Assembly (NCBI GenBank): GCA_001563875.1
Contig: LKMN01000004.1
Coordinates: 1-39,550 of the forward strand
DNA: 39,550 nt
Direction of reading: 5' to 3'
Source of the DNA: Nanohaloarchaea archaeon B1-Br10_U2g1
Lineage (GTDB): Archaea; Nanohalarchaeota; Nanosalinia; Nanosalinales; Nanosalinaceae
Shown here: positions 4,789 through 13,678 of the stretch, in pieces
Position numbering within the stretch: position 1 is the first letter of the stretch
Layout of the letters: every line of letters begins with the position of its first letter
Position numbers and translations under genes: made by a program
Notes under the pieces: generated by a model
Database searches by the model: none
The model's input: only the letters and a program-made list of their open reading frames with translations
Told to the model about the DNA's origin: nothing

Positions 4789-5766
4789 ATGTCCGAGGTA
4801 GAGAATGGAACTGTAATAGGCGAGGAAACAATACCGGTTAAACGCAACTATACCTCGGGAGAAAACGAGAGAAAATGTCCAAGCTGCGGTTCAGAAGACA
4901 TTGGACATGACAGTGCAAAAGGAGAACTTTTCTGCAGAAAATGCGGGACAGTTATAGATGAAGAACGAATAGATACGTCTCGGGAATGGAGAGCATTCAG
5001 CTCTGAAGAGAAAAGCACGAAATCTCGTGCAGGGAGTCCAATAACATTCACAAAAGCAGACAAAGGGATGAGCACGCAGATAGGTTACAGCGGTGAACTA
5101 AGCAAGGTTTCAGGGCCGCGTAGAGGAAAATATTTCCGTATGAGAAAGTGGGATAGAAGAGCTGCAAGCTCTCAGAGCAGAGGCCTACAAAACGCTTTAT
5201 CCGAACTTGAAAGAATCATATCCGATCTAAAACTCCCTAAATCCGTATACGAGGAGGCAGCAAGATTGACGGAAAAAGCACGGGAAAAGGGCATAATTAA
5301 AGGAAGAGGTATAGAGCCTACAGTAGCTTCACTAGCATATCTTGTAGCACGCAAACAAGGTATACCAAGAACATTGGAAGAGGTCTCAGATGCTGCTTCG
5401 GTATCAGAAAGAAAATTAGGTAAAACGTACCGGTATACGGCCAGGGAACTAGATATGGATATCAAGCCGGCAAGACCGGAAGACTTCATACCAAGGTATG
5501 CCGGAGAACTAAACCTTTCAGGATCTGCTCAGGCTAAAGCTAAAAAGTATATCAAAGAGGCTCGTAAAAGAAAAGTACTTGCCGGTAGAAGTCCAAAAGC
5601 TATTGTAGCCGCAGTACTTTACTTGGCAGCAATAGTTGAAGGAGAGCAGCTTACGCAGAAAAGAGTAGCTGACACAGTAGGGGTTACTTCTGTCACTATT
5701 AGAAAGAACTACCGTGAGATAGCGGAAGCCTTAGAGATCTACGAGGAGGTAGAAAAGTCCCGTTAA
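4789..5766 (+). CDS. tfb: transcription initiation factor IIB (TFB)
   Basis: Zn ribbon CPSC...CRKC, EWRAF B-reader, two cyclin repeats (IKGRGIE..., LAGRSPKAI..., TQKRVADTVGVTSVTIRKNYRE). Confidence 0.97.
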   Translation: MSEVENGTVIGEETIPVKRNYTSGENERKCPSCGSEDIGHDSAKGELFCRKCGTVIDEERIDTSREWRAFSSEEKSTKSRAGSPITFTKADKGMSTQIGYSGELSKVSGPRRGKYFRMRKWDRRAASSQSRGLQNALSELERIISDLKLPKSVYEEAARLTEKAREKGIIKGRGIEPTVASLAYLVARKQGIPRTLEEVSDAASVSERKLGKTYRYTARELDMDIKPARPEDFIPRYAGELNLSGSAQAKAKKYIKEARKRKVLAGRSPKAIVAAVLYLAAIVEGEQLTQKRVADTVGVTSVTIRKNYREIAEALEIYEEVEKSR

Positions 5767-5770
5767 GTTG

Positions 5771-5809
5771 GTTCGATATCTCTCGAACATATACATCCGT
5801 CTATAAAAA
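5771..5809 (+). promoter_or_regulatory. palindromic operator GTTCGA-N6-TCGAAC plus TATA box for the 5832 gene
   Basis: GTTCGA tatctc TCGAAC at 5771-5788, 13-nt gap, TATAAAAA at 5802-5809, ATG at 5832. Confidence 0.7.
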
Positions 5810-5831
5810 CTATGAGATGTGTCATCTTTGT

Positions 5832-6371
5832 ATGAGAAAAGTAACTATTTTAGCTTTAGTAGTGCTTCTCGCAGGTTTGACTCTTGCGGTAGTAGATCAG
5901 CCAGAGCCGGATGACGGAGAAGTAGCCATAACAGATATTGAACAGCAGTTCGACCACAGCTTTAATGTTACAGAAGACCAGTACAACGAGACAGAAACCG
6001 GTTTAATAAACTATGAGGTCCAGAACGGAACAGTAACCTTTGAAGGTGTTCTACAGACACCTACGCCTCCACCATGTAACACTCTACAGGAAGAAGTTAA
6101 TGAAACCGACGACAGCTACCGGTTTGAAATAGATGTACAGGCTTCCGATGATGAAGGACAGATCTGTCCGCAGGTAATCACATACCAAAAGTATAACGCA
6201 ACCTTTGATGCCGAAGAGCCATACAGTCTTGAAATAGTTCATGAAGATGAGGTTGTTGAATCAATAGAGGTTGGAGAGACAGGAGAAGACCTAGATGAAA
6301 CAGAAGATGATAGAAACAGTAACAGAACTGTCTTTGACTCCATAAGAGAGTGGTTTTCTAACCTCTTCTAA
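5832..6371 (+). CDS. secreted/surface protein with signal peptide and probable beta-sandwich domain (179 aa)
   Basis: MRKVTILALVVLLAGLTLA signal peptide, two Cys (TPPPCN; ICPQVI), C-terminal amphipathic VFDSIREWFSNLF. Start moved to ATG 5832, 22 nt after the TATA box. Confidence 0.75.
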   Translation: MRKVTILALVVLLAGLTLAVVDQPEPDDGEVAITDIEQQFDHSFNVTEDQYNETETGLINYEVQNGTVTFEGVLQTPTPPPCNTLQEEVNETDDSYRFEIDVQASDDEGQICPQVITYQKYNATFDAEEPYSLEIVHEDEVVESIEVGETGEDLDETEDDRNSNRTVFDSIREWFSNLF

Positions 6372-6383
6372 AACTGTTCTTTT

Positions 6384-7580
6384 TTACTGGTTTGAAGAGA
6401 TTATCTCTATAACGTCTCGGTGCTCCAGTTCATGGTCTGAACCTATCTGTCTACTATTCCTACAGTCTATTGCGTGTAGGAAGCCTTCACCAATATCGGA
6501 GTGGATATGGTATGCAAACTCCTCTGCAGTAGTCTTTGGAGGCATGAGAAAACAGTCTGGTAGAATATTGCCGTGTTCATCTCCCAGACCATCTGCTCCT
6601 CCTGGAAAAATTGCTATAACACCTAGTTCATTAAAAAGCGCTGTTTCAAGTGCTTTTTGGACGCCTGTTCCTCCGTACTCGTTCATGAACTCTCTAATCT
6701 TTTCAAGTCCTTCCTTTTTCTCTTCAGGCAGATCTTTTTCTATATTAAAGTCGTCTTGACCAGGATAGTAGTCTAAAACTCCTTGTTCTGCCGCGTTTTT
6801 CAGTGCTTTCTCTGCATGGGCACTACAAGGAACAATTTCTAAATGGCTGTACTCCGGGTCTTTGGTGATCTCCTCAAAGTTTTTACGTGCCGCCTCATCG
6901 TCCATCTTGTTTGCGGCGATAACCATAGGTTTAGTATCTTTTCTTATAGCTCGTGCCAGCTCTTTCTCATCTTCTTCGGTCCAGGACGCGGGATCAAGTT
7001 CAAGGTTCTGTGAAAGTATCAGCTGCTTGATCTGGTTTTTGTTTGTCTTAAATGCAGACATCTGTTCTGCTAGTTCTTCCTCTATCTTGACATCTTGTTG
7101 TCTTGTCTTTCCTTCAAAACGTTCTATTCCCTTTCTAAGAATATCTAGATACCACATATCTAGCTCTTTTTCTAGGAAATCAATGTCTTTCCGAGGGTTA
7201 TGTCCTTCAGTAGGTTCTCCTTCAATATCTGTTTTACCGGAAAAGTCTACTATGTGTATCAGGACATCTGCTTCGTTTAAATCTGTCAGGAACTGGTTTC
7301 CAAGTCCTTTACCTTCGTGAGCTCCTGGTATAAGTCCTGCTACGTCCACAAGTTTTACAGGAACATATCTTATTCCTTCTTCGACAAAACCTACTCGTGG
7401 ATCGCTGGTCTCGTCGAAGTCTGGTGCTGCATCCTCTACTCTAACATAGGCCTCTCCAACGCTAGGATCTATGGTTGTGAAAGGGTAATCTCCCTCGGCT
7501 ATATCGTTCATTGTTGCGGCGTTGAAAAAGGTTGATTTTCCGACCGATGGCTTCCCGACAAGCCCGATTTTGTATGGCAT
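6384..7580 (-). CDS. ychF: Obg-family redox-regulated ATPase YchF with C-terminal TGS domain
   Basis: GKPSVGKS, YPFTTIDP, DVAGL, GLGNQFL, ANKMD, and TGS (FAYHIHSDIGEGF...HRDVIEI). Confidence 0.93.
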   Translation of the reverse strand: MPYKIGLVGKPSVGKSTFFNAATMNDIAEGDYPFTTIDPSVGEAYVRVEDAAPDFDETSDPRVGFVEEGIRYVPVKLVDVAGLIPGAHEGKGLGNQFLTDLNEADVLIHIVDFSGKTDIEGEPTEGHNPRKDIDFLEKELDMWYLDILRKGIERFEGKTRQQDVKIEEELAEQMSAFKTNKNQIKQLILSQNLELDPASWTEEDEKELARAIRKDTKPMVIAANKMDDEAARKNFEEITKDPEYSHLEIVPCSAHAEKALKNAAEQGVLDYYPGQDDFNIEKDLPEEKKEGLEKIREFMNEYGGTGVQKALETALFNELGVIAIFPGGADGLGDEHGNILPDCFLMPPKTTAEEFAYHIHSDIGEGFLHAIDCRNSRQIGSDHELEHRDVIEIISSNQ

Positions 7581-7612
7581 AAATTTACTGGCCTCAGAAT
7601 TTTTTTATTAGG

Positions 7613-7852
7613 TTAGCTGTAGAAACTTTCCTCGTATCTGAACCCTGCTTCTAGATGCCTGGTTTTAGGGCATCCCTTCTCTGCTATAGCAAGATATTTC
7701 TTTTTTCCGGGTCTATAGCTGTCAACTTCTTTGGTATAGTAAACGTCTTTAAGCTTTTGCCGTAGTCCTTCTTCCTCACATAAATGGCAGTAGAACTTCT
7801 GTTCCATTAACTCTCTAATATCTACGTCGAAGATGTTGTCTCTTGACGCCAC
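7613..7852 (-). CDS. small hypothetical protein, possible Zn binder
   Basis: CHLC...CPKTRH; GTG start with a TATA-like element upstream. Confidence 0.5.
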   Translation of the reverse strand: MASRDNIFDVDIRELMEQKFYCHLCEEEGLRQKLKDVYYTKEVDSYRPGKKKYLAIAEKGCPKTRHLEAGFRYEESFYS

Positions 7853-7959
7853 AGGAGTTTCTTCTCTGTCAATTGTTAAACCTGTTTTCTCTCCGGATCT
7901 TAACTTATTTGAACTGTAGTGCAGATTTGTTTAAATTAGAGAAGTCATGGAGAGATAGT

Positions 7960-8163
7960 ATGGCAGCTAACAAAGAAACGTACGGAGCAGGGTTCAGTTT
8001 TTCAGCTTTAGGATTCGTGATAATGTCCGCACTTTACATACTACAAACACAGTTCAACCAGCAGTTTGTTACAGCGGCTGAGACAACGCTTCTGGTGGCG
8101 CTTGTAGCAGGTGTAGGAGCTATACTTTTCTACTATGGGGCTAAAGAGGACGAAAGAATATAG
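7960..8163 (+). CDS. small two-TM membrane protein (67 aa)
   Basis: Start re-called at ATG 7960 (GGAG and TTTAAAT upstream). MAANKETYGAGFSFSALGFVIMSALYIL...LLVALVAGVGAILFYYG. Confidence 0.7.
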   Translation: MAANKETYGAGFSFSALGFVIMSALYILQTQFNQQFVTAAETTLLVALVAGVGAILFYYGAKEDERI

Positions 8164-8198
8164 TTTATTGTTAAAACTTTCGACATCTAACCTTCTGT

Positions 8199-8579
8199 AT
8201 GAGAAAGTTAAAACTCCCGGGAAGAGATTCCACACGTCCAAGGCTGGATGAGAAGGATATCAATCTGGTGGAGGAACTTGGCTTGGCAAAGCTTAAGGAG
8301 CAATCTAATGATATTGTGGAGTCTAAGCTTAGAGAACAGCCAGAAAACGATGGAAACCAGACTCCTAGAGCAGGTAACCCTGTCTATAAAGCGATGCATG
8401 CCTGCAATGCAGAATCTCGTGTAAGTCTTTCCAAGGCTCACCGTATACCTGCAGGTAAGCCACTTACGGACTCTCAAGTCCGGTCTGTTGTCAACTTATT
8501 GGTAAGATGGATAGTAAGAGAACATAACTTCTTCCTACAGGAAAAGGAAAAAAGACAGAAAAACCTTTCTGAATATTAG
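8199..8579 (+). CDS. DUF4186 family protein (divergent)
   Basis: ENDGNQTPRAGNPVYKAMHA...HRIPAGKPLT...VVNLLVRWI resembles DUF4186 (NDGKQTP..GHPVF.AQHA...HGIP.G..L). Confidence 0.75.
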   Translation: MRKLKLPGRDSTRPRLDEKDINLVEELGLAKLKEQSNDIVESKLREQPENDGNQTPRAGNPVYKAMHACNAESRVSLSKAHRIPAGKPLTDSQVRSVVNLLVRWIVREHNFFLQEKEKRQKNLSEY

Positions 8580-9874
8580 AAAAAGTCTTCTGACTTCAAA
8601 TGTTCAACAACTCTGTCTTGATCAAGCTTTTCTTCCTCTCCGGAATCCATATGTTTCATTGTGACTTCTCCGTTTTCGAGATCTCTTTTACCAACAATTA
8701 AAACCCTATCTGAGTTAATACTGTCGGCATAACTTAGCTGTCCTCCAAAACCTCTACCGGTCAGATCTGTTTCAACTGATAAACCTCTGTCTCTGAGTTC
8801 TTTCGCATACTCCAGACCTTTATTCCGGACATCCTCCGAAACTGTTAAGACGTACATGTCTGTTTCAACCTGTTTTAGAGGCCATTTGCCCTCCTTCTTC
8901 AAGAGTTCTATAGTTGGAGAGTAACCGAAAGCAAATCCTACAGCAGGAACCTCTCTGTCGCCGAAAAGTCCAACAAGATCGTCATATCTTCCTCCGCCGA
9001 AAAGTGCTCGCAGCTCACCTTCAGCGTCAAATGCTTCGAACACAAGGCCTGTGTAGTAAGCTAGTCCTCTTACAATTGAAAGGTCGAGTCTACACATCTC
9101 TTCGACTCCATAGGCTTCTAATGCCTCTGCTAGTTCTTCTATTCTTTTTACAGACTCTTCTGCTTCCTCAGGAGTCTTTTCTTTCAGCTCTTCAACAGTC
9201 TCTTTGATAGGGCCTGATATATCAGTGATTTCGTCTACTTTTTTGGCTTCCTCTCTGTTTAGTCCTTCAGATTCAAGGTCTTCTAAGAACTCTTCTCTCC
9301 CCATTTTTTCCTTGTCGTCGATAACAGACATCGCTGCTTCTGCTCTTTCAACTCCTTGAGACTTAAGGATTGATTCCAGAAGCTTTCTATCGTTGATTAA
9401 GAAGTTTACACGGTTTTCTACTCCAAGTTTTTTGTAGATTGTTGCAGCGGTTACAATTATCTCTGCGTCTGCTTCAACACTTTCTATACCGAATATATCG
9501 AAGTCTCCCTGGAAGAACTCTCGGTCACGGCCTTTCTGGACGTTCTCATACCTCCATCTTTTTGAGGTATCATACCATTTAATAGGTGTTTTCAAGTCTT
9601 TTCTCTGCTGTACAAGCCTTGCTCTTGTAGGTGTCTGTTCAGGTATAAGCGTGATTTCCCGATTTCCTTTATCTGCGAAGGAGTATGTCTGATCTAGTAG
9701 TTCGTCCCCTGATTTTACACGGTATAAATCGGTTTTTTCAACGTTGGGGGTATTTATCTCTCTGAATCCGAACTCCTCAGCTGTTTCCTCGACTATGTCA
9801 ATAAGTTTTCTTAACGAAGTATAGTCTTCCGGATAACGGTCATAAAATCCTTTCAGACTTGTTATCTCTGTCAT
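8576..9874 (-). CDS. hisS: histidine--tRNA ligase
   Basis: KGFYD, LIPEQT, WRYENVQKGRDREFFQ (motif 2), RGLAYYTG, GGGRYDDL, anticodon-binding domain. Confidence 0.97.
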   Translation of the reverse strand: MTEITSLKGFYDRYPEDYTSLRKLIDIVEETAEEFGFREINTPNVEKTDLYRVKSGDELLDQTYSFADKGNREITLIPEQTPTRARLVQQRKDLKTPIKWYDTSKRWRYENVQKGRDREFFQGDFDIFGIESVEADAEIIVTAATIYKKLGVENRVNFLINDRKLLESILKSQGVERAEAAMSVIDDKEKMGREEFLEDLESEGLNREEAKKVDEITDISGPIKETVEELKEKTPEEAEESVKRIEELAEALEAYGVEEMCRLDLSIVRGLAYYTGLVFEAFDAEGELRALFGGGRYDDLVGLFGDREVPAVGFAFGYSPTIELLKKEGKWPLKQVETDMYVLTVSEDVRNKGLEYAKELRDRGLSVETDLTGRGFGGQLSYADSINSDRVLIVGKRDLENGEVTMKHMDSGEEEKLDQDRVVEHLKSEDFF

Positions 9875-9981
9875 TTTTTAGGGCTCCTTGTTGAAACCTT
9901 TGTTCTCTAATGTTTTAAACCGGTTTTGAATGAGGATTTTTCGAAGTATTCAAAAACACGCTAAGTAATACTCTGTATTGT

Positions 9982-10836
9982 ATGGGTTTTCTTTGTATCG
10001 ATATAGGAGGGACTAACACGCTTCTAGGTCTTGGAAACGGCGAGTTCAAAGTTGTTAGGAAAGTTTCGAGCAAAAAATTTCTAGAAAGTATAGACTCAAT
10101 AATAGAGGAATTGAACCAAGACGTAGAGATCGAGAAAGTAGCCGTAGCGGTAGCAGGACCTATAGACCGTGAAAAAGGAGTTTTTTATCCTCCTAACATA
10201 GGTATTGAGAAAATAAATCTTATCGAACCGCTTGAACAATACGGCGAAGTTTCAATAATCAATGACTGCACTTCTGCGGTTCTAGGAGAATACTGTTACG
10301 GAGACCACAACTGTGAAAACTTAATCTATGTAACTATAAGCTCTGGTATAGGAGCAGGAGTTGTATTGGACGGAAGGCTAGTCGAAGGTGCGGACGGCAA
10401 CTTTGGCGAAGTCGGACATATGAAGATAAAAGAAAAAGGTCTTCGTTGCGGATGCGGCGCAGAGGGTCACTGGGAGTCGTTCTGCTCTGGGAACAACTTG
10501 CCGGAGATGGCCGAACAGCTGACAGGTTCAAGCTTCTCGGATGCGAGAGCAGTCTTTGATAAGTACCGAGAAGGAGAACCAGATGCGGAGAAAACAATTA
10601 GAGAGATGAAACAGATTAACGCACAAGGATTCGCCAATCTCGTTAACCTCTATAATCCGGATAAGATTGTTGTAGGCGGAGCTGTAGCATTAAACCATCC
10701 TGATATAGTAGTTGGTGGTTTAGAGGAAGAAGTGGATGTAAAAACAGTCAACTCATCTCCGGAGATAGAAGTATGCGGACTCGGCGACAGATCTGTCTTA
10801 CACGGTTTGAGAGCGATATGCAACGATGAAGTTTAA
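9982..10836 (+). CDS. ROK family sugar kinase (glucokinase-like)
   Basis: DIGGT, IND, SSGIGAG, GEVGH, CGCG..GHWE ROK signature. No N-terminal HTH. Confidence 0.92.
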   Translation: MGFLCIDIGGTNTLLGLGNGEFKVVRKVSSKKFLESIDSIIEELNQDVEIEKVAVAVAGPIDREKGVFYPPNIGIEKINLIEPLEQYGEVSIINDCTSAVLGEYCYGDHNCENLIYVTISSGIGAGVVLDGRLVEGADGNFGEVGHMKIKEKGLRCGCGAEGHWESFCSGNNLPEMAEQLTGSSFSDARAVFDKYREGEPDAEKTIREMKQINAQGFANLVNLYNPDKIVVGGAVALNHPDIVVGGLEEEVDVKTVNSSPEIEVCGLGDRSVLHGLRAICNDEV

Positions 10837-10865
10837 CTATGAAAGCCTGCAATTAGATCCTAGCA

Positions 10866-11333
10866 ATGGGAGATTTTAAGGAGCACATACTTTTCGGACT
10901 GCTTACTGCTGCAGTACTAATGTATCTCTTCGAAGAATTCATAGATATAACAGCATTAGAAGCATTATCAGGAGCCTTGGCTGTATTTATAGGCTCAATA
11001 ATGCCGGATATAGATCACAAGAGATCCTATGTTCATAGAGCGGTTAAATCCTTTACAAGTATTTCTGCAGGTATTTTAACGTTTCTAGTAGCGCCTTTGG
11101 AAACTCATCAGAGGTACATAGCGGGTATAACAGTGTTTTTAATGGTTTACTCTTTCTTCTCACGTATTAAGATGAAGCATAGAGGCTTCACCCATACGCT
11201 AACGTTCTGTATTATAGCTACCTCTGTAGGAATTATACTAAGCGTTACGTTTCTTTATACCGTAATACCAGGTCTAGCTCTAGGCGTGGGTATACTGTCT
11301 CATCTCTTGATGGATAGAGAGTTCAAGTTCTAA
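10866..11333 (+). CDS. membrane metal-dependent hydrolase (YdjM-like)
   Basis: H...PDIDH...HRGFTH...SHLLMD motifs with TM segments. Confidence 0.88.
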   Translation: MGDFKEHILFGLLTAAVLMYLFEEFIDITALEALSGALAVFIGSIMPDIDHKRSYVHRAVKSFTSISAGILTFLVAPLETHQRYIAGITVFLMVYSFFSRIKMKHRGFTHTLTFCIIATSVGIILSVTFLYTVIPGLALGVGILSHLLMDREFKF

Positions 11334-11776
11334 TTTATGTCTGCAACGTCGCCTAAGGTAGCTTTCTTCTGATTGCCTTTCTCAGAAGTACCATAGTCTG
11401 AGACTTCAGGATTGGTATAAATAGATATACCGAATTTGTCAGAAAGCTTCTTAGCTAGGGACTTATCTGGTTTCAGATCCTGTTTCTCAATCTTACTTAT
11501 TAAGGACTCTTTCTCGTTGAGTTCGTTGGCAACCTCTTTAATCGATAGCTGTTCGCTTTCTCTTGCATCCTTTACTTTCTCTCCGTAGTCAGGAACAAGT
11601 ACTTCTTTACTTGTCCGTTTCTTTGGAGATTTCTTTCTTTTCTTTCTCTTCTTAGAGGTCTTTGAAAGGTCCTCTCCCATGTCTGCACAAGATTCACAGA
11701 CTCTTAGAACAGCGCCTTCGATTTTAGCTTTTTTAACTGATTCAGTGTTCTTACCGCATAGTTCACATGATGGCAT
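11330..11776 (-). CDS. mbf1: archaeal multiprotein bridging factor aMBF1
   Basis: CELCG...CESC Zn ribbon, Cro-type HTH (ARESEQLSIKEVANELNEKESLISKIE), C-terminal TLGD. Confidence 0.92.
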   Translation of the reverse strand: MPSCELCGKNTESVKKAKIEGAVLRVCESCADMGEDLSKTSKKRKKRKKSPKKRTSKEVLVPDYGEKVKDARESEQLSIKEVANELNEKESLISKIEKQDLKPDKSLAKKLSDKFGISIYTNPEVSDYGTSEKGNQKKATLGDVADIN

Positions 11777-12012
11777 TTTAGGTCGTAGAAAAAGTTTTTC
11801 GGATTACTCTCCTTTTTGGTTTGGTTTAATACCAGTTTTTACTCTGTATCGAACAAGTTACACGCCATAATTTAATAACCTTACATATCCGGAAAGCAAT
11901 GATTACATAAGAAAATGTTGTAAGTCCTTAGTAGTCCCTGAAGGCTTATAAAATCGGGCTTAGAGACCATGGAATTACATTATATATATTTAGATTATCT
12001 CCTTTCATTCCT

Positions 12013-12795
12013 ATGTCAGAGAAACAAGTATTTGAAGTTCTCAACGAGTTATCCGAAAAAAATGATGAACACGTAGAAGAATTTTCAGACAAACTTAAAC
12101 AGCACTTAGACGGTCAAGATCCTGAAGTAACGACTATTCTGTGCAGCGATTCCAGAGTGATACAGGGAAAGATCTGTGGAAACGAAGTGTTGGGAAGAGA
12201 GTTCTCTCATGAAAGGATTGGCAACCGGACTAACAGTCTGACCTTAGAGGGAGAGGTCGTACCATCAGGAAGTATAGACTATATCCCCGAACATAGTGAC
12301 ACTCCGACCGGAGTACTGGTGATAGGACACACAGGCTGTGGAGCAGTAACAGCAACATACGATACGATACAATCCGCTCTGAAGTCCGAAGAAGTAGAGG
12401 AGCCTGAAGAGATAATTGAGCTGTATGAAAAAGGAGAGATAGACCTAGAAGACTATACAGGAGAGACCAAAGGAATTACAACAGATATCTACCTGCTTAT
12501 GAAGGCGGGTCTAGACAGCTCCTACAAAGAGCTTATGGATGAAGACTTAGAAGACAAAGAAATGATTAACCGTTTAGTAGAGTACAATGTTGATAACCAG
12601 GTTGAGTTTCTGAAAGAACATACCGACTATGAAGACACAGAAATCCTAGGTGCAGTCTACGATATGGAAGGTGTATACGGAGAGAATGGAGGGCTTTACC
12701 TAGTTAACTATGATGGCAGATCAGAAATCGACGAGCTTGAACAACTCTTCTCAGACTACTCGTTCGTTGACGTGGACAGGCAGGACTCTGCCTGA
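12013..12795 (+). CDS. beta-class carbonic anhydrase
   Basis: CSDSR and GHTGCGAV Zn ligands, YNVDNQV, GAVYD. Confidence 0.88.
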   Translation: MSEKQVFEVLNELSEKNDEHVEEFSDKLKQHLDGQDPEVTTILCSDSRVIQGKICGNEVLGREFSHERIGNRTNSLTLEGEVVPSGSIDYIPEHSDTPTGVLVIGHTGCGAVTATYDTIQSALKSEEVEEPEEIIELYEKGEIDLEDYTGETKGITTDIYLLMKAGLDSSYKELMDEDLEDKEMINRLVEYNVDNQVEFLKEHTDYEDTEILGAVYDMEGVYGENGGLYLVNYDGRSEIDELEQLFSDYSFVDVDRQDSA

Positions 12796-12799
12796 TTCC

Positions 12800-13315
12800 C
12801 TATCTTAATCTTCTTATTAGAAGCCCGTACAAGAGCGCCAAAGCCGAGACTGTTAAAAGCCCTAAACCTACGAGAACCAGTATTTCGCCGGAAACAAAAT
12901 ACTGGCTAGTTTCTGCCGCAGGTTGTGCCTCTAATGCCATTTCATACTCTTCAGCCGGAGCATCGTCTTGAAGAAGACTTATTCTTTCCAAGCCTTGGAA
13001 GCCAACTACTACGCCAGTAACTGCTGAAAGGGCTGATGAAACTATAGAGAACTTTACCTTTTTTTCTCTCCCGCTTACTATCGCTTCAGACTTCTGTGTA
13101 GGGTGGTATACAACTCTTTTTCTTCCTTCTTCCTCTTCTTTTTCAATTAGGTCTGCATCATTAAGTTTTGAAAGATGAGAAGATACTGTAGACTTGCTTT
13201 TACCAGTTTTTTCACTTAAATTGGTGGTTGTAGAAGGTTTATCAAGAAGTTTGTGAAGTATTCTTACTCTTGTAGGTGATGAAAGAGCTTTAACGGTTTT
13301 GAAGTCTATCTCCAT
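12800..13315 (-). CDS. ArsR-type winged HTH regulator with two C-terminal TM helices
   Basis: KALSSPTRVRIL...TNLSEKTGKSKSTVSSHLSKL...GRKRVVYH, then IVSSALSAVTGVVVGF and ILVLVGLGLLTVSALALLYGLLIRR. Confidence 0.88.
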   Translation of the reverse strand: MEIDFKTVKALSSPTRVRILHKLLDKPSTTTNLSEKTGKSKSTVSSHLSKLNDADLIEKEEEEGRKRVVYHPTQKSEAIVSGREKKVKFSIVSSALSAVTGVVVGFQGLERISLLQDDAPAEEYEMALEAQPAAETSQYFVSGEILVLVGLGLLTVSALALLYGLLIRRLR

Positions 13316-13340
13316 AAAAAATAGTTTAGAGGCTTCCAGG

Positions 13341-13379
13341 TTTTTAACTATGCTTAGACTTGTTCGAATATTATCGAAC
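13341..13379 (-). promoter_or_regulatory. palindromic operator GTTCGA-N6-TCGAAC plus TATA box of the ArsR-TM gene
   Basis: GTTCGA atatta TCGAAC at 13362-13379. On the minus strand a 13-nt gap, then GTTAAAAA (13348-13341), ATG at 13315. Confidence 0.7.
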
Positions 13380-13510
13380 GTCTTAAATCCTTCTTGCTGA
13401 TAACCTGATAGTAAAAACCTGTTTCACAGGGCGTGGCAAAGCAGATTTCACGGGTTAATGCCCATACCTATAAAAAAGAGCCCAGACAATACCTTTTTGG
13501 TGAATTGACC

Positions 13511-13678
13511 ATGGTAGACGTACTAAAGAAGTCTGGCGTCCGTGACGCAGCAGAAGGCGTCAACGTTGGATCTGACTTCTACGATGCTCTAGACGATGCA
13601 GTACAAGAAATGATCGAAAGAGCAGTAGAAAGAGCAGAAGAAAACGGACGAAGGACTGTAAAGTCAAGAGACGTTTAA
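13511..13678 (+). CDS. short histone-fold protein (DUF1931 / alpha3-truncated 'face-to-face' type), 55 aa
   Basis: MVDVLKKSGVRDAAEGVNVGSDFYDALDDAVQEMIERAVERAEENGRRTVKSRDV, ending in RxTVxxRD. GGTGA SD at 13499-13503 supports ATG 13511. Confidence 0.9.
   Translation: MVDVLKKSGVRDAAEGVNVGSDFYDALDDAVQEMIERAVERAEENGRRTVKSRDV

Follow-up and report, generated by a model that had tools for sequence, protein, structure and literature searches.

The DNA analyzed here, referred to as the window, is the stretch of 39,550 nucleotides (nt) that represents contig C8 (LKMN01000004.1) of Nanohaloarchaea archaeon B1-Br10_U2g1, whose genome (G000) comprises 709,831 bases in 26 contigs and is 96.75% complete. 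The window harbors two copies, A and B, of a palindrome with the core GTTCG-N8-CGAAC (Table 1). Palindrome A is separated by 5 nt from the stop codon of a gene for the transcription factor TFB and precedes the gene of a protein with two cysteines, here called the target. Palindrome B precedes the gene of an ArsR-type winged-helix protein, here called the regulator. The palindrome very probably serves to control a small circuit of cell-envelope genes. An earlier note on the same DNA, made from the letters alone, had located both palindromes and had described the two genes as encoding a signal-peptide protein with two cysteines and an ArsR-type winged helix-turn-helix (wHTH) protein with two transmembrane segments. 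These statements were verified by recounting the coordinates, by the N-terminal hydrophobic stretch and the cysteines of the target, and by a Pfam match and two Kyte-Doolittle segments in the regulator. The spacing of 13 nt between palindrome and TATA-like box, also given in that note, is correct at both sites, but the distance of 22-25 nt from the box to the ATG is not, as recounting gave 21 and 24 nt and the first site had been off by one.

Table 1. Features of the palindrome-bearing promoters in the window and in two other contigs of the source genome (aa, amino acids).
Feature	Position	Strand	Description
Palindrome A, GTTCGATATCTCTCGAAC	5771-5788	none	core GTTCG-N8-CGAAC; upstream site of the promoter of 5832-6371
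TATA-like box, TATAAAAAC	5802-5810	+	13 nt past palindrome A; 21 nt to the ATG at 5832
Target gene	5832-6371	+	acidic protein of 179 aa; N-terminal hydrophobic signal/anchor; no Pfam match
Regulator gene	12800-13315	-	ArsR-type winged-helix protein of 171 aa; HTH_5 match and two C-terminal hydrophobic segments
TATA-like box of the regulator's own promoter, GTTAAAAAC	13340-13348	-	13 nt past palindrome B; 24 nt to the ATG at 13315
Palindrome B, GTTCGAATATTATCGAAC (GTTCGATAATATTCGAAC in gene direction)	13362-13379	none	presumed autoregulatory site
Weaker site, GTTCTATTCTATCCGAAC	contig C18, 32909-32926		2 mismatches; box at offset 13, then 22 nt to ATG
Weaker site, ATTCGAAATCCGTAGAAC	contig C4, 7676-7693	-	2 mismatches; box at offset 13, then 22 nt to ATG

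The presence of two copies is a real observation and lies far above chance. The exact 12-base form GTTCGA-N6-TCGAAC occurs only at these two positions in the whole genome. In 100 shuffles of the window that preserved its dinucleotides, a mean of 0.05 matches was obtained with up to one mismatch allowed, and two or more matches appeared in a single shuffle. This agrees with the earlier note, in which a second copy had been considered improbable by chance. With the canonical archaeal distance between TATA box and transcription start, the position of the box at 5802-5810 implies that the transcript would be leaderless or near-leaderless.

The palindrome is conserved in front of both genes in related genomes. 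Orthologues of the regulator are full-length in most of 40 relatives and share 44-60% identical residues with it. In the 160 nt upstream of the 20 best orthologous loci, the core was located 42-46 nt before the regulator ATG in all 20 cases (17 exact, two with one mismatch and one with two mismatches), and neither the spacer nor the flanks were conserved. The core was therefore refined to two half-sites of five positions separated by eight. At the sixth position of the half-sites there is no more than a preference for R or Y, and about 70% of the sites have an A after the proximal half. Homologues of the target were detected in 26 of the 40 relatives. The 30 loci examined correspond to 28 distinct genes after subtraction of G000 itself and of one duplicate pair. 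The core, with at most one mismatch in its 10 positions, precedes 22 of these genes (10 exact, 12 with one mismatch), at a distance of 42-46 nt (51 nt in one case) from an in-frame ATG at the head of a signal peptide. A further homologue has a core with two mismatches, and five lack it: one is second in a tandem pair, one has an N-gap in its locus and three are weak or paralogous matches. Because the search took the best of 14 offsets at each in-frame ATG, the chance expectation is about 2e-3 per gene, and 22 of 28 is thus far from chance. The mismatches at target sites occur nearly always in the TATA-distal half, and the proximal CGAAC is nearly invariant.

The distribution of the core was also surveyed from the sites themselves. 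The bare core yielded 120 exact sites in 41 genomes, compared with 40 for a reversed-pattern control, and 204 compared with 67 in 70 genomes of the phylum Nanohaloarchaeota. Eleven of the 120 sites were set aside as tRNA-like by their sequence and the other 109 were fetched with 1.5 kb on each side; five of these were tRNA-like as well, which brings the number of such sites to 16 and leaves 104. Promoter architecture was defined as an A/T-rich box at 10-15 nt from the palindrome, followed after 19-28 nt by an ATG that opens at least 60 codons. This arrangement was found on at least one side of 61 of the 104 sites, but at only 0.59% of G000 positions per strand. The distance between palindrome end and ATG is 42-44 nt in 56 of 74 gene calls; a stricter pattern, consisting of the palindrome, N14 and WTAAAA, gave 10 matches, and offset and box vary by 1-2 nt. 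The 74 genes behind the 61 sites comprise 24 regulator genes, 49 genes encoding an N-terminal hydrophobic segment and one gene that belongs to neither class. Such a segment is thus present in 49 of the 50 non-regulator genes, compared with 17% of the architecture-positive open reading frames (ORFs) of G000. The segment was called by a Kyte-Doolittle heuristic, not by SignalP, and orthologues were counted repeatedly among the 74 genes, so that the independent units are the families, of which there are at least 10. The earlier note had proposed that its regulon be judged, among other things, by whether the motif is conserved upstream of orthologues, whether it is placed non-randomly in the genome and whether the targets are enriched in secreted proteins. 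All three were observed. Taken together, the sequence comparisons identify the palindrome as a cis-element that is genuine, conserved and placed at a constant distance from the TATA box.

The recurring target families are the two-Cys protein of 180 aa; a protein of about 365 aa with a NEW3/NPCBM_assoc domain (E 1.8e-15 and 3.2e-15), which is orthologous to the gene at C18:32971 of G000 (tblastn E 1e-47 to 3e-68); proteins with DUF4349 (E 7e-38) or Beta_propel (E 2.4e-58) domains; and a lipoprotein related to the DUF6612-like one encoded at C4:6792 of G000 (E 1.6e-7). In at least 11 genomes the DUF4349 gene is divergent from the regulator gene and a single palindrome is shared by both promoters, which fits a symmetric dimer acting in both directions. 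Across the 41 genomes, the box in the self promoters of the regulator is A-rich (ATAAAAA or CTAAAAAA) and occupies the position seen at 13340-13348 in the window, whereas target promoters have TTTTAAA or TTTAAA. These two promoter classes may differ in basal strength or in factor dependence. In one relative (G031, C1:239580 and 241689), tandem paralogues of about 381 aa with twin-arginine-like N-termini (GRRDFLKTVGA) and no Pfam match each lie behind an exact palindrome, with a longer gap of 30 nt between box and ATG.

Further sites are present in the source genome. Half-sites with up to two mismatches gave 23 matches in G000. Of these, four are followed by a TATA-like box at offset 13 and one each at offsets 11 and 15; the other offsets from 5 to 24 gave none. 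Matches with three mismatches did not show a peak at offset 13. The weaker site on contig C18 precedes a gene (C18:32971-34077) for a protein of 368 aa with a signal peptide, a C-terminal anchor and a NEW3/NPCBM_assoc domain (E 3.2e-15). The one on contig C4 precedes a gene (C4:6792-7631) for a lipobox protein of 279 aa with a marginal DUF6612 match. Homologues of all three G000 targets (the two-Cys protein, the NEW3 protein and the lipoprotein) lie behind exact sites in relatives. Homologues of the DUF4349 and beta-propeller proteins were absent from G000 according to tblastn. Exact cores also occur inside a tRNA-Val gene (C9:2220) and at a contig edge (C4:17-34). A gene for an SPFH/Band 7 protein (E 5.5e-38) starts 50 nt past the lipoprotein gene and possibly belongs to the same operon.

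The regulator matches Pfam family HTH_5 (PF01022) with an E-value of 9.4e-15 and 54.7 bits (cut-off 22); the match extends over aa 13-59 and covers profile positions 1-47 of 47. The wHTH domain (aa ~1-85) is followed by a juxtamembrane stretch (GREKKVKFS), a first hydrophobic segment (TM1, ~86-109), a variable acidic loop, a second segment (TM2, ~138-168) and an RRLR tail. Only about 15 residues separate the winged helix from TM1, and no Pfam domain was found beyond the HTH. The Kyte-Doolittle hydropathy maxima in 19-residue windows are 1.67 for TM1 and 2.5 for TM2. In an alignment of 22 orthologues, the winged helix is conserved and its K-S-T...H recognition segment is invariant; the basic juxtamembrane motif (G-K-E-R-K-V-K-F-S) is conserved as well, and the second hydrophobic segment, which has a conserved G and Y-G, is followed by a short basic tail. 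Both hydrophobic segments are kept in position in all 22. As basic residues flank both cytoplasmic sides, the protein probably forms a hairpin with N-in, C-in topology. Between the segments lies a loop of ~25-60 residues with a high content of A, E, T, S and Q; its length and sequence differ among the orthologues. This lack of conservation in the outer loop disfavors a specific ligand-binding sensor. The 171-aa regulator does not contain any cysteine, and none occurs among the invariant columns of the 22 orthologues; therefore, it is not a classical ArsR metal sensor. Prediction of a homodimer from two copies (score 0.00, mark 0.42) spoke neither for nor against a dimer.

At least 192 public proteins match the regulator at E<=1e-5, and relatives are recorded as 'ArsR/SmtB family transcription factor' or 'winged helix-turn-helix domain-containing protein'. 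In public loci, 36 full or long matches belong to Nanohaloarchaea, and the other 17 loci are from Methanobacteriaceae and match the HTH part only. A profile search (E<=1e-12) detected an orthologue in 55 of the 70 phylum genomes, or 54 once one match to another family is removed, and in 25 of the 28 with a completeness of at least 90%. In one relative (G013, C3:324142-324415; genome contamination 7%), the regulator gene is broken by a TAG stop into frames of 79 and 101 codons and still lies behind an exact palindrome; this copy is a probable recent pseudogene. The only orthologue in family f5 (G028, C17:10670-10687) has a symmetric variant of the self-site, GTTTG-N8-CAAAC, together with an altered recognition segment (GKHKSTIVEHL). 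Co-evolution of operator and recognition helix was considered for this single case and rejected as uninformative: the variant is not enriched in the G028 genome (four sites compared with six for the control), and no other of its sites there shows promoter architecture.

These data can be combined in a model in which a regulon confined to Nanohaloarchaeota would have GTTCG-N8-CGAAC as its operator, or upstream activating site. The palindrome would be bound by the winged-helix protein (171 aa) as a dimer, and a C-terminal hairpin of two hydrophobic segments would keep this protein at the cytoplasmic membrane. The center of the palindrome would be located about 52 nt upstream of the leaderless start, so that the site spans about -44 to -61, and its proximal edge would lie 13 nt (range ~10-15) upstream of the TATA box, just beyond the TFB recognition element (BRE). 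From this fixed position the regulator would help to recruit TBP and TFB and thus activate transcription. Besides the regulator gene itself, the regulon would include a few genes for proteins that are secreted, lipid-anchored or located in the membrane: in G000 those of the two-Cys protein, the NEW3 protein (C18:32971-34077) and the DUF6612-like lipoprotein (C4:6792-7631), and in relatives also those of the DUF4349 and beta-propeller proteins. Given the lack of conservation in the outer loop, the modulator is more plausibly the envelope's state or load, or feedback from its assembly, or possibly proteolytic release, than a specific ligand. On the sequence evidence this model, in which binder, sign, topology and modulator are all deduced, is considered moderately probable. 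The earlier note had already suggested that a membrane-anchored regulator controls itself and a surface protein in response to an outside signal. The conserved element at a fixed offset, the self-site in 20 of 20 loci and the envelope character of 49 of 50 targets are in line with this suggestion, but the variable loop opposes its sensing part insofar as a specific ligand-binding domain is meant.

The regulator itself is a likely binder of the palindrome: its self-site is universal, divergent promoters share one site, its gene is syntenic with targets and sites are more strongly enriched where the regulator is present. The ratio of sites to controls is 3.8 in the 54 genomes with the regulator (177:47) and 1.35 in the 16 genomes without it (27:20). 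Autoregulation is the commonest reason for such a self-site at the gene of a transcription factor.

Several observations weigh against this model, however. After removal of one self-site per genome, the contrast between genomes with and without the regulator is weak (123:47 compared with 27:20, Fisher p 0.07), and in these counts related genomes are not independent and tRNA matches are included on both sides. No regulator was detectable in G011 (98% complete, one contig), G026 and G037, yet a site with one mismatch precedes the target homologue in each of them; G029 likewise lacks a detectable regulator and has an exact site before another secreted protein. The distance of 13 bp between the half-site centers exceeds one helical turn; this spacing is compatible with some winged-helix dimers. 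The hydrophobicity of TM1, with its maximum of 1.67 over 19 residues, is only moderate. Finally, exact palindromes were found in nine relatives at the far end of a long non-coding stretch. In six of these nine loci (L101, L109, L115, L117, L122 and L087) an S-layer-like gene starts 310-570 nt downstream, and the other three loci end at contig edges. The S-layer-like assignment is based on tblastn in all six and on Pfam S_layer_C in two (E 1.9e-8 and 5.4e-6). These palindromes lack the 13-nt spacing to a TATA box and thus fall outside a simple promoter-proximal model.

The S-layer-linked sites fit the envelope theme. The copy at the contig edge of G000 (C4:17-34) may represent the same feature, and an S-layer-like gene at the start of contig C1 of G000 is truncated by the assembly. 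A role of palindromes in AT-rich non-coding stretches as replication-origin elements was considered and rejected, as the flanking genes are S-layer-like and Rfam returned only tRNAs.

The genomes without a regulator are also the basis of an alternative, according to which another DNA-binding protein recognizes the palindrome and the ArsR-type protein is just one envelope-associated member of the regulon. In G011, G026, G029 and G037, near-consensus or exact sites occur at the right position in the absence of a full-length regulator as defined by the profile of 22 orthologues, and the link between protein and DNA is drawn solely from position and co-conservation. However, the site precedes the regulator gene in every one of the 20 loci and is often shared with a divergent target, the regulator gene is in synteny with targets, and the enrichment of sites is higher in genomes that possess the regulator. 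Furthermore, genera of the regulator-less genomes also include carriers of the gene: four of five rows in g11 (three of five in truth, as the match in G068 is to another family) and one of four in g23. Since congeneric genomes carry the gene, its absences may be recent losses or assembly gaps. A divergent regulator was sought in the genomes lacking an orthologue, but the best HTH matches there were unrelated proteins without hydrophobic segments, and no other candidate factor was found. Binding by a different protein is thus rather unlikely.

A second alternative concerns the sign of regulation. The ArsR-type protein might bind the palindrome but repress, or dually regulate, itself and the envelope genes, with de-repression when it is inactivated or cleaved at the membrane. 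This would agree with the typical behavior of ArsR/SmtB and MarR-like winged-helix proteins, which are mostly repressors, and with the frequency of negative autoregulation. In archaea, however, sites upstream of the BRE generally activate, whereas sites over or downstream of the TATA box repress. The palindrome leaves the TATA box, the BRE and the presumed start clear and lies about 13 nt from the TATA box in 61 sites. A spacing this rigid suits contact with the basal machinery and suggests that TBP or TFB is touched, and the position upstream of the BRE, by analogy with archaeal upstream activators, argues for activation. The boxes of the membrane-bound regulator ArnR at -43 to -84 are likewise activating, according to the available part of PMC6396743. 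Repression is for these reasons unlikely. The last explanation, that the two copies are coincidental or a by-product devoid of a promoter role, such as a terminator or hairpin formed in RNA past the TFB gene, a palindrome of restriction type or a tRNA-like sequence, draws on the position of palindrome A just past the TFB stop codon and on the existence of TTCGAA-type palindromes and look-alikes of tRNA T-arms (the copy in tRNA-Val, 16 of 120 sites), but is effectively refuted by the fixed distance to the ATG across genera whichever gene lies upstream, by the lack of a T-run after palindrome A on inspection of the sequence, by the shuffle and reversed-pattern controls, and by the restriction of the TFB adjacency to the genus of the window plus one paralogue without a site.

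Two TFB paralogues of the source genome (window 4789-5766 and C18:31849-32787) each adjoin a palindrome-bearing promoter. A link of TFB to the palindromes was nevertheless rejected, and the adjacency, given its confinement to the window's genus and a site-less paralogue, is taken as coincidence.

The two-Cys protein is the most conserved target apart from the regulator itself. In the relatives its gene usually shares a contig with the regulator gene, at a distance of 1-9 kb, and it often adjoins that gene or lies within 9 kb of it. The protein from the window contains exactly two cysteines, at positions 82 and 112; among the homologues, P81, C82, C112 and Y121 are nearly invariant. An AlphaFold model (mean pLDDT 81.3) shows a confident, beta-rich core of eight strands (aa 40-147). 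The C-terminal helix is amphipathic and carries a conserved W-x-x-x-L-F. A Foldseek search of this model against the Protein Data Bank gave nothing at E<=0.001. In a wide search with VIA-align the best match was a NigD-like protein (Z 5.5, rmsd 3.1, 88 aligned residues), but kinship with it was rejected because this Z lies under the tool's own background for unrelated folds. It is tempting, if quite doubtful, to regard the two-Cys protein as an extracytoplasmic co-component of the regulator, so that both would form a minimal sensor of envelope state, or of contact with the haloarchaeal host cell, that switches on the surface proteome of the obligate symbiont, for which the S-layer-linked sites, the adhesin-like NEW3 protein and the beta-propeller and DUF4349 proteins would stand. 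If true, this would be an archaeal, DPANN-specific analogue of bacterial ToxR/ToxS and VtrA/VtrC and a master switch for host attachment.

A further gene lies beside the regulator. At 13450-13483 (plus strand) of the window, a short GC hairpin (GGGttaatgCCC) followed by ACCTATAAAAAAGAG precedes a small ORF (13433/13511-13678) that had no Pfam match. The same arrangement recurs on the opposite strand upstream of the regulator gene in six loci of relatives (L002, L005, L007, L015, L018 and L020). It looks like a conserved strong promoter of the small divergent gene, whose true start is probably located at the ATG of position 13511 (MVDVLKKSG...) rather than at the GTG of position 13433.

Nanohaloarchaeota are DPANN archaea that live attached to haloarchaeal hosts, and several of the relatives are in co-culture. 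The genomes in the sample are smaller than about 1.3 Mb. To our knowledge, little has been reported on regulation in this phylum, least of all on that of the surface proteins mediating host contact. The present data offer a testable unit, consisting of an operator of 18 bp, a candidate regulator in 54 of 70 phylum genomes, a rigid promoter geometry and a short list of conserved envelope targets. The same element was found at a conserved position before the regulator's own gene and before other genes across species, as is expected in comparative analysis of an autoregulated regulon. The earlier note did not recognize the regulon, and the literature searched (PMC4158269 included) likewise did not describe it or any ArsR-type membrane regulator in Nanohaloarchaeota.

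Several known systems resemble parts of this regulon. With the ArsR/SmtB family the regulator shares the HTH_5 domain and a palindromic operator, which implies a dimer. The metal sites of this family consist of a Cys pair in helix 3 (ELCVCD-like) or of a His/Asp/Glu site in helix 5. The regulator has no Cys and lacks a CXC-type metal site; it is predicted to be anchored in the membrane, its site lies upstream of the core promoter, and the genes behind its sites are connected with the envelope, not with metal resistance. ToxR, CadC and TcpP are the bacterial paradigms of transmembrane transcription regulators (TTRs), and in ToxR and CadC an OmpR-type winged helix is joined by a single transmembrane helix to a folded periplasmic sensor. 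Unlike these, the regulator has an ArsR-type winged helix, a hairpin anchor and an unconserved loop of 25-60 residues, and Trans_reg_C is absent from the 17 Pfam families that match it at E<=0.01.

TTRs, which average four per archaeal genome and include 17% of forms with two transmembrane segments according to the available text of Demey et al. 2023 (PMC10269533), combine a DNA-binding domain and a transmembrane region in one polypeptide that presumably acts on DNA while in the membrane; as a class they are reported to be widespread. The same combination is found in the regulator, as judged from the HTH_5 match and the Kyte-Doolittle segments. The text available of PMC10269533 names neither ArsR nor Nanohaloarchaeota, and the family may still be contained in its supplementary lists. 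The closest parallel is ArnR of Sulfolobus acidocaldarius, for which the accessible part of PMC6396743 describes an N-terminal HTH, a putative HAMP domain, a sensing domain and a pair of transmembrane domains at the C-terminus. ArnR activates a surface structure and binds inverted repeats (TCGAC-N5-GTCGA) located in the flaB promoter between positions -43 and -84; ArnR and ArnR1 are membrane-bound one-component activators of the archaellum and of other type-IV-pili genes (PMC6396743). The regulator resembles ArnR, as described there, in its N-terminal HTH, its two C-terminal membrane segments, the inverted repeat upstream of BRE and TATA box and the genes for surface proteins. It differs in that Pfam revealed neither a HAMP nor a sensing domain and the hairpin follows the winged helix almost immediately. 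Moreover, ArnR is described as needing two boxes for binding in vitro, whereas a single palindrome of 18 bp per promoter is present here. The motif is another one, the lineage belongs to DPANN and the feature conserved best is autoregulation; these distinctions are taken from the available description of ArnR, not from a comparison of sequences. To judge from the searches, neither the element nor its geometry nor the regulon has been described before, whereas the class of membrane-tethered regulators is already known in archaea from the parts available of PMC6396743 and PMC10269533. To the small set of membrane-tethered factors with a known site, the regulator would add a minimal case with two segments from a third archaeal lineage, suited to the general question of how promoters are reached by a membrane-fixed factor.

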